Assembly (NCBI GenBank): GCA_965205265.1
Contig: CBDBGH010000003.1
Coordinates: 2,080,001-2,144,000, forward strand
DNA length: 64,000 nucleotides
Direction of reading: 5' to 3'
Source: Alphaproteobacteria bacterium
GTDB lineage: Bacteria; Pseudomonadota; Alphaproteobacteria; Bin95
This document shows positions 7,501 to 64,000 of the stretch, one piece after another. Under the pieces are notes generated by a model. It saw only the letters and a program-made list of their open reading frames with translations. It did not search any database and was not told where the DNA came from. Each line of letters begins with the position of its first letter. Position 1 is the first letter of the stretch. The translations under genes and the position numbers were made by a program.

Positions 7501-8321
7501 GCGTCGATATCACCTTCGCCGAGGGGCCGGAGGGCGCGCAGGTGACGGTCGATTTCTCCCGCTCCTCGGACCAGGTGCCGGCCGCCATCAACAGCTATAT
7601 CAACTACACCCGCGCCTACACCTACTTCGCGGTCAAGGTGTTCTGCGACCCGTTCAGCCCGCAGAATGCGGGCGCGATGCGGCCGATAAGGCTGGTGGCG
7701 CGGGAGGGCAGCTTCTTCAACCCGAAGTTCCCGGCACCCTCGGGAGGCCGGGCCGCGCTGCAGGTCCGCATTTTCGACACGATCAACGGCGCGATGGCGC
7801 AGGCCATGCCAGAGCGCGCGATGGGCGCCTTCAGCCACTGGTCCAACCCCAATATCGGCGGGATCGACGACCGCACGGGCAAGCCCTATGTCTTTTACGA
7901 CCTGATCCTGGCCGGCTATGGCGGCCGGGCGGACAGCGACGGGCCGGAGGGCCTGAGCCCCGTGATGAACTGCTCCAACATCCCGGTGGAAGTGCATGAG
8001 ACCAATCTGCCGGTGCTGATACACCGGGTGGAACTGCTGGACGGCACCGGCGGCGCGGGCCGGCACAAGGGCGGTAGCGGCCTGCGCAAGGATATCGAAC
8101 TGCTGGCCGGCGAAGGCGTGCTGACCTTGCTCGGCGACCGGCATGAGAGCCGGCCCTACGGCGTGTTCGGTGGCGAGCCCGGCGCGCTCGGGGAGACGGT
8201 GCTCAACCCCGACGGCAACGGCGAGCGGCTCGGCTCCAAGGAAATCCGCACGCTGAAGCGCGGCGACGTGCTGAGCATCCGCACCAGCGGCGCCGGCGGC
8301 TACGGAACGCCCGACGGATAA
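4575..8321 (+). CDS. Fused hydantoinase A/B (5-oxoprolinase-like) protein
   Basis: IGVDVGGTFTD, DMGGTT and GPESAGADPGP (A part); FSEAVREGDDFS, GHLGSM and GAGGYG (B part). Confidence 0.92.
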   Translation: MTGKGAPYRIGVDVGGTFTDFVLRDEETGRVAVHKVPSTPADPSEAVRNGLPALLEKAGAGPGGIGQLLHATTVATNAIIQRRGAKTALITTRGFRDVLILGRQKRYETYDLHMLKPDPLIPRERIFEVPERVSFEGEVLEPLDEEELAPVLERIAAGGYEAVAVALLHAYANPAHERAVGRAVAARLPGAALSLSVDVSPKLREYERTNTTVANSFVKPLVGAYVRRLAEDFAAAGATAELSIMQSNGGLVSPALAGDYPVRIVESGPAAGVLLAGRIGRDIGADRVLSFDMGGTTAKLGAIDGGEPAIAPVFEVDPVRFKKGSGLPINVPAVELIEIGAGGGSVAAAVDGAIRVGPESAGADPGPACYGTGGERPTVTDANLALGYLNPAYFNGGAMALDPAAAEAALQEHVAGPLGLSAAEAAWGIHLVATGNMEHALRVVSVERGRDPRKYALVAFGGAGPIHAARIARTLGVRQVVVPRAAGVGSAIGMLAAEGRLDASVTRLLRLDEAAPGDIAAIYAGLEARLKEDLARLPGASEPEFRRFAYMRHTGQGFEIHVDLPAGEIGEGYTAACEAAFRAAYRARYRTEDPASAVEGVDWALAAVVPGSRDVSAGDAGAAPIGEPPGRRQAWFPEAGGMTETAVWRREAIGPDAVIEGPAIVEDAEATTVIPPGDRARPGPGGHLLIDIQQAAPGQEADDRAGSAGPGPCGGGRTAEASIDPIAFTVIWNSVVSIAEELGTTMRHTAFSEAVREGDDFSTAVFDAKGRMIAQGNFSPGHLGSMPFVIRHATEVYPPETLRPGDSILMNDSWMGSGHFPDFFQVMPVFEGGELLGYVAASAHQMDVGGAAPGSQKVHGVTESFQEGFRILPVRFCREGEIDRDILSMVLANTRVPDKVRGDVMAQHTANLTAAERFRQLFRDHGRAVVEQAFDDILDRSEARMRAALARVPPGTYSFDDRMDDYGPGTRPIHFGVDITFAEGPEGAQVTVDFSRSSDQVPAAINSYINYTRAYTYFAVKVFCDPFSPQNAGAMRPIRLVAREGSFFNPKFPAPSGGRAALQVRIFDTINGAMAQAMPERAMGAFSHWSNPNIGGIDDRTGKPYVFYDLILAGYGGRADSDGPEGLSPVMNCSNIPVEVHETNLPVLIHRVELLDGTGGAGRHKGGSGLRKDIELLAGEGVLTLLGDRHESRPYGVFGGEPGALGETVLNPDGNGERLGSKEIRTLKRGDVLSIRTSGAGGYGTPDG

Positions 8322-59965: not shown

Positions 59966-61141
59966 TCACAGCCGGATGTTGCGCGCCGCGTCTTCCGGGT
60001 CCCGGTGCAGGAATTCCGGCCCCAACCGGTCCAGCGACGGGCAGCCGATCTGGGCCATCACCTTGTCGATCTCGTCGCGGAGGATGTCCACCGCCCTGAC
60101 GGCTCCGGCCGCGCCGCCCGCGACCGCGCCGTAGAGCGTCGGTCGGCCGAGGAACACAAACTTCGCCCCGCTCGCGAGCGCAATCAGGATGTCCGCGCCG
60201 CGCCGGACGCCGCCGTCCAGCATCAGCGCCATGCGGTCGCCCACTTCCGCATCCAGCGCCGGCAGCACATCCAGCGGCGACGGTGCCCGGTCGAGCTGGC
60301 GGGCGCCGTGGTTGGAGACCATCAGCCCGTCCACGCCGGCCTCCGCCGCCTGGAGCGCATCGTCGGTGCGCATCACCCCCTTCAGGATGAACGTGCGCGG
60401 CCAGAGCGCCCGGAACCGCTCGATATCGGCCCAGGTGAGGTTGGCCGGGACCTGTTCGGCCATGAATTCGCCGACCTCGAGCGCGCTCGCGCCCGCCGGC
60501 GCATAGGGTTGCCAGTTCTCCAGCATGGCGAAACCCTGTTTCATGTAGTCCCGGAGCCAGGCGGGATGGCGGAGCGTGTCCAGCTTCGTCCTGAGCGTCA
60601 GCCTGAGCGGGCGGCCGAAGCCGTTGCGCCGGTTGCGCTCGCGGTTGGAATGGACCGGCACATCGACCGTGACGACGAGCGCCGGAATCCCGAGATCCGC
60701 CGCGCGGCGGATCATATCTTCGGAGATCGAGCGGTCCTTCGCCGTGTACATCTGGTACCAGCCATGCTCCGGCGCCTCTCGCGCCATGTCCTCCATCGAA
60801 GCGTTGGCGGCCCCGGACATGATGAAGGGGATATTGGCGTCGCGCGCCGCCCGCGCCAGCATCATGTCGCCGCCGCAACGATAATTGCCGATGCCGCCGG
60901 TGGGCGCGATGCCGTAGGGGCTCGACCAGGTGCGGCCGAACAGCTCCACCGACTGGTCGAGCACCGAAACATCGACCATGTAGCGAGGCACGAGGGAACG
61001 CCGCTGAAAGGCGTCCTCATTGCGCTGGAGTCCCTCCTCGTCGTCCACGCCGCCCTCGATGAAATCATAGACCAGCTTCGGCACGCGCTTCTTCGCCAGC
61101 ACGCGCAGATCGTCGAGATTGATGCACTTGTCGATATTCAT
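59966..61141 (-). CDS. FMN-dependent alpha-hydroxy acid oxidase/dehydrogenase, paralog 2
   Basis: Same motifs; WYQMY and SNRERN intact; SD GGGGAGG. Confidence 0.93.
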   Translation of the reverse strand: MNIDKCINLDDLRVLAKKRVPKLVYDFIEGGVDDEEGLQRNEDAFQRRSLVPRYMVDVSVLDQSVELFGRTWSSPYGIAPTGGIGNYRCGGDMMLARAARDANIPFIMSGAANASMEDMAREAPEHGWYQMYTAKDRSISEDMIRRAADLGIPALVVTVDVPVHSNRERNRRNGFGRPLRLTLRTKLDTLRHPAWLRDYMKQGFAMLENWQPYAPAGASALEVGEFMAEQVPANLTWADIERFRALWPRTFILKGVMRTDDALQAAEAGVDGLMVSNHGARQLDRAPSPLDVLPALDAEVGDRMALMLDGGVRRGADILIALASGAKFVFLGRPTLYGAVAGGAAGAVRAVDILRDEIDKVMAQIGCPSLDRLGPEFLHRDPEDAARNIRL

Positions 61142-61321
61142 CCGGCCCTCCCCCGGCGCCGGCCGCCGTTGCGTCGGGCAGAGTATTCCCAACCGGCCCC
61201 GTCCTGTCAGCCGCAAACTGTCCCACCCCATAATGGTCCGCTCCGGGGCGCGACAAATGACCCGGCGGGATCGGGTGTAGCATGATGTTCATTAAATATC
61301 GGTAATAATTCTAAAAAACAT

Positions 61322-61349
61322 TTGACATATTAGAACAAGACTCCATATT
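61322..61349 (+). promoter_or_regulatory. sigma70-like promoter facing the structured non-coding region
   Basis: TTGACA-16 nt-CATATT preceded by an AT-rich UP-like tract (61281-61321). Confidence 0.6.
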
Positions 61350-61350
61350 T

Positions 61351-61767
61351 GGCCGGACGGGGCGGTGTCCGGAAGCCGCCTTGTCCTTCGCGTCCGCGCC
61401 GGCGCGAAAAAGCCTCGATTCAGCCGACAGGCGAAGTGCGCCCTGCGCCTGGCTCGCGCGCGCGGGCGCACCCGGGCAATCAGGCGCGCGATTCGCGCCG
61501 CCGCGAAACGCGCGCAGGCGGGCGCAGGCACGGGCGCGCAGGATACGCGCGAATCAGGGTCCCGCCGCGCCGGGCAGCCGGGTGGCGGGGAGAGTGGAAC
61601 AAAACGGGATGAAAGAACGATATGCGGAAGATGAACAAACACAGCTTCGGCGAGGCACACATGCCGCCGGACAAGCTCCCCTCCTGCTCGCGGGAGAGGC
61701 CGGGAGAGGGGCGGAACCCATGCTCGAACAGCACACAGGTTATGCGCCTCGCGCATGCGGAACATGA
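61351..61767 (+). ncRNA. Candidate structured ncRNA or long leader; continues at 63175-63231 after the IS
   Basis: Series of hairpins whose G-U pairs work only on the + strand; no convincing ORF. Confidence 0.35.
61677..61711. repeat. REP-like palindromic unit
   Basis: CTCCCCTCCTGCTCGCGGGAGAGGCCGGGAGAGGG resembles alphaproteobacterial CCCTCTCCC...GGGAGAGGG repeats. Confidence 0.45.
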
Positions 61768-61825
61768 CATTTGTATGGACGCCTCCCGTTACGCAAGGGT
61801 TGATTTGGTGTGAGGGTTTTGGAGG

Positions 61826-61960
61826 TTGCAGTTTTGTATCCGGCCTTTTGTGTGGGGCGTGATGCCCGCTGGCCCTGATGGGATTTGCCGATCCGCGCCT
61901 CATTTCCATGACGGGCCTCTCGCCCTTCAATGTCATGCAGGCTTGGCGGATCGCGGTCTG
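61826..61960 (-). ncRNA. Bridge/seek RNA of the IS1111 element (target- and donor-binding loops)
   Basis: Guide segments match the empty target and the circle junction (see findings); closing stem CGATCCGC/GCGGATCG. Transcript ends unknown. Confidence 0.8.
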
Positions 61961-62062
61961 CCCCGTTTGCCATCACTCCTTGTCGTGCCTTGCGCAATCT
62001 TCTGGCGGCTTCCTCCTGTGCCGGTTCGCCCTGTCGGTTTGTGTGCTGTTGTCGCTCTCACC

Positions 62063-63043
62063 CTATGTCGGCTGGCTGACGAAGTTCGCCTGGTATGCCC
62101 GGTCATGAGCCAGCAAGGCCCAGATCGTTCGCGCCGTCTTGTTGGCCAGCGCCACTGTGACCACGTTGGGCGGTCGCCGCGAAGCCAGGCGCAGGGCCCA
62201 TTCGGGCGGTGTCTTGCTTCTGGCGAGCACCGTGCGCGCGCCGTGGATCAGCAGGGTCCGCAGATATTTGTCGCCGCGCTTGGAGATGCCGAGCATGCGC
62301 ACCCGTCCCCCGGTGCCCGTGTGGCGCGGCGCCAGACCGAGCCAGGCGGCGAACTCGCGTCCGGAGCTGAAGGCGGCAGGATCGCCCATCACCGCCACGA
62401 CAGCGGTCGCGGTGAGTATGCCGACGCCGGGGATCTCCGCGACCCGCTGGCTGCCGGGACTGCTGCGGTGCCACAGCGCGATCCGTCGTTCGATCACGGC
62501 GATGTCCCTGTCGAGCGTACCGACACGCTTCCACTGCTCGCGCAGGGTCTCGACGACCGGCGCCGGAAGACGCGCCGCGAGGCGGTCCAGGGCCGGAGCG
62601 ATCCCACGACCGATGCCGGCCCGACCTTTCGCCATGACCTCGCCATACTCGGCCAGCAGGCCGCGCAGGGCGTTGATCTGCGCGGTGCGGAACTTCACCA
62701 ACTGCTGGCGCATGCGATGCAGCGCCAGAACCGCCTGCTGCTCCTCGCTCTTGACCGCCACCGTCTTCACGCCCGGTTGCTGCGCGGCGGTCCAGATCGC
62801 CCGGGCGTCACGCGCGTCGTTCTTGTTGCCGACCGCGAAAGGCCGCACCGCCCGCGCCCAATGCTGCGAGCCCCCGCACGCCTCCATCGCCACCACGCAG
62901 GGCGAACGGGCGGCGAAATGCTTCAGGAACTTCGCCCGCACCAGCTGCAAATCGACAATCTCCCCCGTCTCCCAATCGACCCAGTGCAACTGGAACACGC
63001 GCTTGGCCGTATCCACACCGACCACCGTTCTGTTAGTCTCCAT
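62063..63043 (-). CDS. IS110/IS1111 DEDD recombinase with an apparent internal deletion of about 15 aa
   Basis: GVDTAK, MEACG, NKNDARDA, IPGVG, REFAAWLGLAP, GTGG, ISKRGD.YLR, VALANKTAR. Confidence 0.88.
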   Translation of the reverse strand: METNRTVVGVDTAKRVFQLHWVDWETGEIVDLQLVRAKFLKHFAARSPCVVAMEACGGSQHWARAVRPFAVGNKNDARDARAIWTAAQQPGVKTVAVKSEEQQAVLALHRMRQQLVKFRTAQINALRGLLAEYGEVMAKGRAGIGRGIAPALDRLAARLPAPVVETLREQWKRVGTLDRDIAVIERRIALWHRSSPGSQRVAEIPGVGILTATAVVAVMGDPAAFSSGREFAAWLGLAPRHTGTGGRVRMLGISKRGDKYLRTLLIHGARTVLARSKTPPEWALRLASRRPPNVVTVALANKTARTIWALLAHDRAYQANFVSQPT

Positions 63044-63267
63044 CTCGGACCCTCCGGTTTGCCTGTGAAGAGCTCGCTCTTCCCTCTGGGCACTCTAGAT
63101 GCCGTCGGCCCGAGAGGGTCCAACTCAACCCCCACAACCAACAACATCAGGACAGGGAGGCGTCCATCCCATTTCTATGACACATAGCGCGGCGTCCCGC
63201 CGGGTCGCATGATGAAACATGAGGAGCTCATATGGATAGGTTGACGGGGAGGCCGGCGACACTTTTT

Positions 63268-63289
63268 CCGTCATGCCCGGACTTGTTCC
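63268..63289. repeat. Half of a REP palindrome interrupted by IS66
   Basis: CCGTCATGCCCGGACTTGTTCC; the expected GGGCAT arm is replaced by the IS66 end. Confidence 0.55.
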
Positions 63290-63372
63290 GTATGCGGTGC
63301 GAGCGCCCCACCTTCATACAGGCCTGGTGATGTGGGAGTTAGGGTTCGGAATGAGACGAAGGGAATTTCTCA

Positions 63373-63771
63373 TTGGAGCCCTCAGCAGAGCTTCTCACCA
63401 ACGCCAGGGTTGAAGTGTTGCCGGCGCGTGGCGGCTTTCGCCGTCGCTGGCCGGCTTCGGTGAAAGCGCGGATTGTTGCCGAGACACTGGAGGAAGGCGC
63501 GACGGTCGCCGGGGTAGCGCGTCGCTACGAGATCAACTCGAACCAGCTGTCGGAATGGCGCCGCCAGGCACGGAAGGGCCTTCTGGTGTTGCCTGCGGAG
63601 GGCGAGATGGGTTTTGCTCCGGTGGTCTTGCGTCAGGATGAGCGCCGGGTTCCCGCTGCGGGCAGCGACCGCCTGGAAGTGATCCAGGACCGGGTGACGC
63701 TCCGTCTGGACGCCGCGACACCGGCTTGCCGGATCGCCGAGATCGTGTCGGCGTTGAACGCATCGGTATGA
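63373..63771 (+). CDS. tnpA: IS66 TnpA (HTH)
   Basis: RRRWPASVKARIVAETLEEGATVAGVARRYEINSNQLSEWRR, FAPV. Confidence 0.88.
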   Translation: MEPSAELLTNARVEVLPARGGFRRRWPASVKARIVAETLEEGATVAGVARRYEINSNQLSEWRRQARKGLLVLPAEGEMGFAPVVLRQDERRVPAAGSDRLEVIQDRVTLRLDAATPACRIAEIVSALNASV

Positions 63772-64000
63772 TCTTCCCATCGAACCGGGTCCGGATCGTG
63801 GTTGCGACGAAGCCCGTGGACTTCAGGAAGCAGCACGACGGCCTTGTTGCGCATGTGAAGAGCGTATTGCGCAAGGACCCGTTCACGGGAACGGTCTTCG
63901 CGTTCCGTACGAAACGAGCTGACAGGCTGAAGCTGATCTACTGGGACGGGACCGGCCTGGTGATGGTCTACAAGCGTCTGGAGGACCAGGGCTTTGTCTG
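63768..64000 (+). CDS. tnpB: IS66 accessory protein TnpB (Orf2), truncated by the window edge
   Basis: MIFPSNRVRIVVATKPVDFRKQHDGL...RADRLKLIYWDGTGLVMVYKRLE; ATGA overlap with tnpA. Confidence 0.92.
   Translation, partial: MIFPSNRVRIVVATKPVDFRKQHDGLVAHVKSVLRKDPFTGTVFAFRTKRADRLKLIYWDGTGLVMVYKRLEDQGFV

Follow-up and report, generated by a model that had tools for sequence, protein, structure and literature searches.

The 64,000-nt stretch of DNA analysed here (the window; Alphaproteobacteria bacterium, GTDB lineage Bin95, GenBank assembly GCA_965205265.1, contig CBDBGH010000003.1, positions 2,080,001–2,144,000 of the forward strand) carries near its right-hand end one copy of an IS1111-family insertion sequence (IS) on the minus strand (61772–63174), made up of a transposase gene (tnp) and, downstream of it, a region encoding a bridge/seek RNA with readable guides. 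Coordinates are window positions throughout, and the element is read on the minus strand, i.e. in tnp orientation. On the plus strand the left junction reads CATGACATTT|GTATGG and the right junction CCATCC|CATTTCTATGAC, exactly as quoted in an earlier reading of the bare sequence (the original prediction), all of whose quoted strings were found where it had placed them when the minus strand is read. AAATG is common to both junctions, as a 5-bp direct repeat. Features placing the element in IS1111, and bearing out its first description as an IS1111-type element with an RNA downstream of tnp, are the DEDD and PF02371 domains of the transposase, 13-bp subterminal inverted repeats, a long non-coding region downstream of tnp (288 nt from the stop codon, 62063, to the right-end extension, vs ~130 nt upstream of tnp) and terminal extensions of 7 and 3 nt (AAATGGG on the left, ACA on the right) when the target is taken as a 16-mer. 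Insertion is site-specific, in one orientation and without target duplication, as seen from the flanks of other copies and from unoccupied orthologous sites (Table 1).

Table 1 Features of the IS1111-type element and its RNA in the window.
Feature	Position	Strand	Basis or remark
Whole IS1111-type element	61772–63174	−	1403 bp; junction reading and the family's 7/3 extension convention
Interrupted target, right half including core	61763–61771		plus strand CATGACATT
Right 3-nt extension, ACA	61772–61774	−	outward of the right inverted repeat
Right-end subterminal inverted repeat, 13 bp	61775–61787	−	inverted-repeat partner 63155–63167
Bridge/seek RNA region, 135 nt as modelled	61823–61957	−	model R1, relatives, pair counts, thermodynamic fold
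Donor-binding domain of RNA	61828–61888	−	model R1
Donor loop 3′ arm, AUACA + AA + A	61832–61839	−	same sense as right terminus + core; 8/8 against a four-A junction
Donor loop 5′ arm, AUCCCAU	61878–61884	−	7/7 complementary to ATGGGAT, the 7 nt that follow the core at the left end
Target-binding domain of RNA	61889–61953	−	model R1
First-loop stem, CGAUCCGC / GCGGAUCG	61953→61946 / 61896→61889	−	read directly
Target loop 3′ arm, GUCAUGG + AA	61904–61912	−	same sense as left target + core; 8/9 here
Target loop 5′ arm, CAUGACA + UU (CAUGACAUU)	61929–61937	−	9/9 complementary to top strand of core + right target (AA-TGTCATG)
Transposase gene, 326 aa	62063–63043	−	Pfam, NCBIfam NF033542, alignments with intact copies
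Left-end subterminal inverted repeat, 13 bp	63155–63167	−	perfect repeat with 61775–61787; kept in relatives
Left 7-nt extension	63168–63174	−	AAATGGG in tnp orientation; contains one AA core copy
Interrupted target, left half	63175–63181		plus strand CTATGAC = GTCATAG in tnp orientation

The RNA begins ~105 nt past the tnp stop codon and consists of 8-bp and 4-bp stems around a first internal loop capped by a small hairpin, then 3-bp and 4-bp stems around a second internal loop with another hairpin cap. A covariance model (R1; 135 positions, 28 pairs), made from an alignment of six lineages and the helices assigned to it, was searched against 57 sources (56 loci from a one-genome-per-species collection and the window). 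Of its 43 matches at E ≤ 1, the best 39 (E 4e-38 to 6e-11) are full-length, share the strand of tnp and lie immediately 3′ of it; a weak match within the window (7642–7714, E = 0.4) was disregarded. In the R1 alignment 96.7% of cells are paired, vs 31–43% when partners are slid by 1–3 columns, compensatory changes on both sides are found in 22 of the 28 pairs and none of 500 shuffles reaches any of the pairing measures, with the proviso that the alignment was fitted to the model, which favours such figures. Plain free-energy folding of the window sequence gives the same helices (z = −4.9 for the target domain). The secondary structure is thus the conserved two-loop form of a bridge/seek RNA. 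Relatives differ freely in their first-loop arms, whereas the second-loop arms hardly change among them, like the element ends.

An RNA with four guides is well supported, with the first loop providing two target guides and the second two donor guides, as first proposed. The arms of the first loop are complementary to opposite target strands, overlap at the core and covary with the target; those of the second loop match both ends of the element and are conserved along with these ends in relatives. The 9/9 match of the target-loop 5′ arm, initially described as being to the left flank, holds and in tnp orientation is to the core and right target. It is exact over 9 nt to the reverse complement of core plus right flank, a length reached in none of 5000 mononucleotide shuffles of the 288-nt non-coding region. 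The second target guide had been given as a 12-mer (GUCAUGGAAAUG, read at 61912→61901 on the minus strand) with an 11/12 match; string and position stand, except that its last three bases (AUG, 61901–61903), adjoining the target-loop 3′ arm, equal the three nucleotides that follow the core at the left end and match the element rather than the target. The single mismatch of this arm in the window is rG-dT, at 61907, and the corresponding arm matches 9/9 at six of seven G013 sites (G000 is the genome of the window and other G-numbers are genomes of the same family, of which 37 were examined). On its own, the left-flank match is not significant in the window, where an A/G mismatch limits the longest exact run to 5 nt (reached by 2452 of 5000 shuffles), and its support comes from relatives. 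In the second loop AUACAAA (61839→61833) matches right terminus plus core 7/7, and a fourth A adjoins it at 61832.

Correspondence between guides and flanks was tested over the R1 matches. Four of the 43 were dropped for arms too short or gapped (L107, L106, L098 and window 7642) and four for ends missed by the rule used to locate them (L070, L113, L101 and L114), leaving 35 matches and 29 distinct guide pairs; the left-flank test also omits L105, L084, L095 and the second L077 match (left end not located or cut off by the contig, or short arm). Identity between the left flank and the 7 nt that precede the core in the 3′ arm averages 4.84/7 for cognate pairs vs 2.44 for non-cognate ones (25 vs 594 pairs), and the longest exact run between right flank and reverse complement of the 5′ arm is 6.24 nt vs 2.87 nt (29 vs 812). 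Random reassignment of flanks reaches the observed mean in 0 of 5000 trials for each target arm. Family-wide, the first-loop 5′ arm starts N-A-U, and in most right flanks the right half-site has ATG at its distal end, a constant part of otherwise variable targets. One relative, L077, carries a tandem duplication of the right end and the 3′ portion of the RNA gene (L077:2332–2462 and L077:2467–2593), in which the first right end and core are fused precisely to the DNA downstream of left-target guide and core within the RNA gene; it looks as if this element recombined with its own guide-coding DNA as a half-site.

The element is matched in 17 of the 37 family genomes, that of the window included. 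Full copies, to which the comparison of flanks was confined (rearranged or partial copies L040–L043 were left out), number seven in G013 (90% identity), one in G006 (84%), three in G016 (79%) and one each in G003 and G002. Six of the seven G013 copies read GTCATGG-AAATG-[element]-AAATG-TCATG in tnp orientation, against GTCATAG as the left flank in the window. The only G006 copy shares its flanks with these six and the window; two further contigs (runs X7 and X14) adjoin the same right half-site. Other copies are therefore found at the same site, as had been anticipated. The seventh G013 copy (L039, G013:C5:3782482–3784939) has a right half without mismatch (CGTCATG) but a left half (TCGGTGG) that matches at only 3/7 positions, and is a natural insertion at a half-matching site. 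The G013 5′ arm, CAUGACG, makes an rG-dT pair at the six G013 sites and is perfect at the seventh copy and at the G006 copy. In G016 the copies lie at ATGGAGG..CGACATG with RNA arms GGAGG-AA and CAUGUCG; these different flanks come with correspondingly different guides, and are not the unrelated targets that would have told against guiding.

The target is a 16-mer, GTCATGG-AA-TGTCATG, with a 2-nt core, and not a 17-mer with a 5-nt core. In G000, GTCATG-N4-GTCATG occurs 136 times and the N5 spacing 0 times. The 16-mer at ≤1 mismatch occurs 66, 63, 84 and 116 times in G000, G013, G006 and G016, with 0 for a reversed control. The site occupied in G006 is unoccupied in G000, reading GTCATGGAATGTCATG with N4 spacing, and G006 and G011 both have the site of the window in unoccupied form, with N4 spacing. 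In 28 of 29 guide pairs (AA 16, AG 7, GA 4 and TG 1) the dinucleotide before AUG in the target-loop 3′ arm is the same as the one that follows AUAYA in the 3′ arm of the donor loop, an agreement that identifies a 2-nt core in the 16-mer register, and the guide dinucleotide equals that of the left junction in 23 of 25. The junctions seen in the window arise equally from a 16-mer target with two A's and a circle junction with four, the number carried by the donor arm.

In the original prediction the target was a 17-mer (CATGACATTTCCATGAC), the empty site CATGA-CATTT-CTATGAC, the circle junction CCATCC-CATTT-GTATGG and the core 5 nt long, a scheme with three A's in the junction that follows if all of the 5-bp direct repeat is assigned to both target and element. 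Such an arrangement (target GTCATGGAAATGTCATG, AAATG as shared core, three-A circle junction) would explain why AAATG is found at both junctions and why the target 3′ arm with its AUG matches the left junction 11/12 here and 12/12 at six of the seven G013 copies, and one perfect instance of the 17-mer exists in G014; we nevertheless regard it as very unlikely. At ≤1 mismatch only three instances of the 17-mer are found in the 37 family genomes, and no unoccupied one exists in G000 or G013 at ≤2 mismatches, the matches there being left junctions of occupied sites. All three orthologous unoccupied arrays have N4 spacing, as do all the N4/N5 pairs counted in G000, the 29 guide pairs point to a core of 2 nt, as in IS621, and four A's are present in the donor arm. 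The family's 7/3 terminal extensions are obtained with the 16-mer alone, since the longer target leaves 7 and 2. Both strings for the empty site and the circle junction were reconstructions: the evidence favours CATGACATT|CTATGAC, with one T/A fewer in the target, and one more T/A in the junction. More radically, the guide matches might be by-products of an ordinary hairpin (CAUGAC/GUCAUG) near a repeat-rich region, from an RNA that guides nothing. The two target arms are indeed mutually complementary and partly paired in predicted folds, and no Rfam family matches this RNA (none at E ≤ 1 over 61500–63400). Relatives with other targets, however, have non-complementary arms that each follow their own flanks, covariation is seen in the stems that enclose the loops, whereas the loop arms change with the target, and the donor arms match the element's own ends, so that a mere hairpin is scarcely credible.

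The 16-mer, 2-nt-core element of the window differs from its intact relatives in the transposase. While the protein matches PF02371 (E = 3.7e-23), it matches only positions 88–153 of PF01548, of which an intact G013 transposase matches positions 1–153 of 155; with NF033542 ('IS110 family RNA-guided transposase', cut-off 140 bits) the window protein scores 278 bits and the intact G013 copy 325. The gene carries an in-frame 45-bp (15-aa) deletion at ~62844–62858, in the RuvC-like N-terminal domain, where alignment with relatives places the lost residues between the catalytic E and the second D. In intact copies an 8-bp direct repeat (GGCGCGGG) brackets the stretch deleted in the window, and the missing 45 bp are present in contigs of public runs X7 and X14 (a ~96%-identical relative). 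Because of the deletion the protein is 326 aa long, where the family has 330–350 aa; four of five intact relatives have 341 aa and one 342, and intact relatives are 45 bp longer than the window element. The GL-P----TG motif is present (WLGLAPRHTGTGG). The deletion presumably inactivates the transposase. G000 has one full-length copy of the element, and G013, with an intact gene, has seven; together with the deletion, this single copy and ten free perfect 16-mers suggest that the window copy no longer moves, and most likely it is a relic that cannot move but has kept its RNA gene intact.

Continued mobility would require that the deletion is tolerated or that a second IS1111-type element acts in trans. 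This element is present twice in G000 (L002, G000:C3:2333637–2336678; L003, G000:C3:587412–590453) and encodes an intact 340-aa transposase and a related RNA (R1 match, 44.9 bits). Its left flank ends GTAAGCG-AT and the first-loop 3′ arm is GUAAGCGAU, a 9/9 match. In the window copy the reading frame, the DEDD residues, the TG motif, the RNA, both inverted repeats and both termini are all kept, and transposases only 46% identical are described as sharing a target and a similar RNA (PMC11187229). Against this, the deletion lies inside the RuvC-like fold, between E and second D, the second transposase is only 42% identical to that of the window and belongs to an element with different termini, and one full-length copy is found although 10 perfect and 66 near-perfect targets are free. 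We consider mobility distinctly improbable, if a little less so than the 17-mer.

Several observations weigh against parts of the interpretation preferred here, of a relic with a two-loop RNA and a 16-mer target. The full guide dinucleotide is found at the right junction in only 20 of 29 cases (the first base agrees in 28 of 29), so the register of exchange at the second core base is not fully settled. The run contigs hold no read of a circle junction or of precise excision (no joints across the element), and the four-A circle junction is a presumed one. A target made of a direct repeat also means that its two guide arms can pair with one another over 6 nt, and the predicted fold does pair them in part; in the window's lineage the target loop may be partly closed. 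The donor-loop 5′ arm stops short of the core, with CA following in nearly all relatives. The deletion preserves frame and all DEDD and TG residues, and loss of activity is not proven by it. A sigma-70 promoter scan found 0 promoter-like sites in 61700–63300. Metatranscriptome contigs (X14) of the ~96%-identical relative cover 61761–62387 and other parts and run into the flanks; they could be read-through transcripts or DNA, and give a weak hint of RNA only. A junction promoter picked out by eye (−35 TTGCGT in the right end, 17 nt, CAAAAT across the four-A junction; 7/12) is not taken as evidence.

Among the public runs, X1–X4 contain the whole stretch and may be the source of the assembly, and for this reason are not counted as independent. 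Contigs of X5 break at 61963 and 62795; stretches of the window not covered by run contigs carry no meaning. Runs labelled as coral-reef, sponge or marine metagenome share 0.17–0.35 of sampled words, from which no habitat is inferred.

With the anatomy of the element, the covariation of the RNA structure, the covariation of guides with flanks and the register of target and core all observed, homology with tested IS1111/IS110 systems suggests that the RNA is made, bound and used to guide recombination. It would bridge two DNAs for a DEDD-type transposase. Its first loop would pair with both target strands, the 5′ arm with the top and the 3′ arm with the bottom strand, and its second loop with the joined ends of the excised circle, AUCCCAU with the left end and AUACA-AA with the right end and core. 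Exchange would take place at the 2-nt AA core, without duplication. The natural target is predicted to be GTCATGG-AA-(T/C)GTCATG and the circle junction to carry four A's between ..CCATAC and TGGGATGG... As a whole, this account (an IS1111 copy with a two-loop RNA, a 16-mer target with 2-nt core and a transposase most likely out of use) is in our view very probably right.

The AUG next to the core is near invariant in the family and so does not specify the target. Together with the target-loop 3′ arm it pairs over 12 nt with the left junction, i.e. the product of insertion, compared with 9 nt for the free target. This AUG may conceivably be a handshake-type extension on the bottom-strand guide, with a strand-exchange order in IS1111 opposite to that of IS621 and a reaction biased towards insertion, which we think unlikely. 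Because AUG is near constant, covariation cannot decide between a handshake and a structural role. In one relative (L086), where the left end keeps its initial A, AUG has become CUG and the 5′ arm starts with G instead of U, a combination that favours a structural pair over a handshake.

The 16-mer target consists of two adjacent units of a 10-bp tandem repeat (GTCATG plus 4 nt) within genus-specific intergenic repeats; in G000, adjacent GTCATG pairs occur 136 times at N4 vs 0–7 times at N0–N3 and N5–N9. Arrays of these units flank the element in the window at 61740–61771 and 63175–63225. They usually precede a short GC-rich palindrome (ATGCGC..GCGCAT) and stand at the edge of composite intergenic repeats. 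The intergenic region at 61280–61770 includes a GC-rich module of ~210 bp (~61390–61600) that has 44 copies in G000 and tens in congeneric genomes, and for which no Rfam family was found (over 61150–61800, only a chance-level match, E = 0.76). G000 retains 10 perfect and 66 near-perfect 16-mers as free targets.

At the unoccupied orthologue of the G006 site, a ~190-bp palindromic insert breaks the decamer array (G000:C3:1833350–1833530). A conserved motif resembling an element end, ATATGGATAGGTTGAC preceded by GGGGCTT, has 19 occurrences in G000, 11 of them immediately next to a CATG/GTCATG array; the one in the window (63230–63245) is situated between IS1111 element and IS66-type genes. CATG/GTCATG arrays may attract more than one kind of mobile element. 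The left neighbour of the element is a gene for a flavin mononucleotide (FMN)-dependent dehydrogenase (59966–61231). To its right (63373–64000) an IS66-type element opens with two genes, for an HTH_Tnp_1 protein and then an overlapping IS66 Orf2-like protein that runs off the end of the window.

RNA-guided IS110/IS1111 recombinases are being developed as genome-writing tools, for which natural examples with a readable code are useful. This lineage is a compact natural series (~40 relatives, 29 distinct guide pairs, five core dinucleotides) in which target arms, core and donor arms can be read directly against real insertion sites. It also illustrates a trap: if the 'core' is equated with the longest direct repeat shared by the two junctions, the inferred target and circle junction are each off by one base when the element's own end mimics the target. 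For the host, the element singles out one family of tandem 10-bp repeats as places where mobile DNA can land.

No close named relative was found in a plasmid collection (distant mode, 592 matching records), where the best matches have only ~65–69% identity and are annotated 'IS110 family transposase'. The element has the structural hallmarks of IS1111, adds no new principle and does not extend the known mechanism, and the ISfinder-wide target logos and bridge RNA tables might already list it or its target. IS1111 elements are described as having subterminal inverted repeats of 11–13 bp, 7/3 extensions and a transposase of 330–350 aa with GL-P----S/TG, and an RNA-guided mechanism has been demonstrated for several members (PMC11187229); predicted bridge RNAs are reported for 93% of the IS1111 elements in ISfinder.

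As described for the seekRNAs of ISEc11, ISPa11, ISKpn4 and ISPst6 (Siddiquee et al. 2024, PMC11187229), the RNA here lies downstream of tnp and insertion causes no target duplication, the match to the top strand lies 5′ of that to the bottom strand, with overlap in the target, and subterminal repeats, 7/3 extensions, GL-P----S/TG and, in the intact relatives, a 341-aa transposase are shared. Compared by description, it differs from these four in its 10-bp tandem-repeat target and in the internal deletion of its transposase. The published accounts of IS621 (Durrant et al. 2024, PMC11208160; Hiraizumi et al. 2024, PMC11208158) also describe target and donor internal loops, each with one arm per DNA strand, a 2-nt core read by the guides, a 7 + 2-nt left target guide and a covarying stem scaffold. 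In IS621, on the same accounts, the RNA lies in the left rather than the right end, the arm order within loops is the reverse and the core is CT rather than AA; the inverted repeats here are long. Sequence similarity of the window transposase to the solved IS621 protein is confined to the C-terminal domain (E = 2.5e-7).

IS4321 and IS5075 reportedly insert in the inverted repeats of Tn21. ISPpu9 and ISPpu10, which insert in repetitive extragenic palindromic (REP)-type repeats (PMC12288879, 10.64898/2026.03.19.712850), are like the present element in using a multicopy host repeat as target and hence having many landing sites. From both pairs the element of the window differs in that its target is a tandem 10-bp unit rather than a palindromic REP or the end of a transposon.

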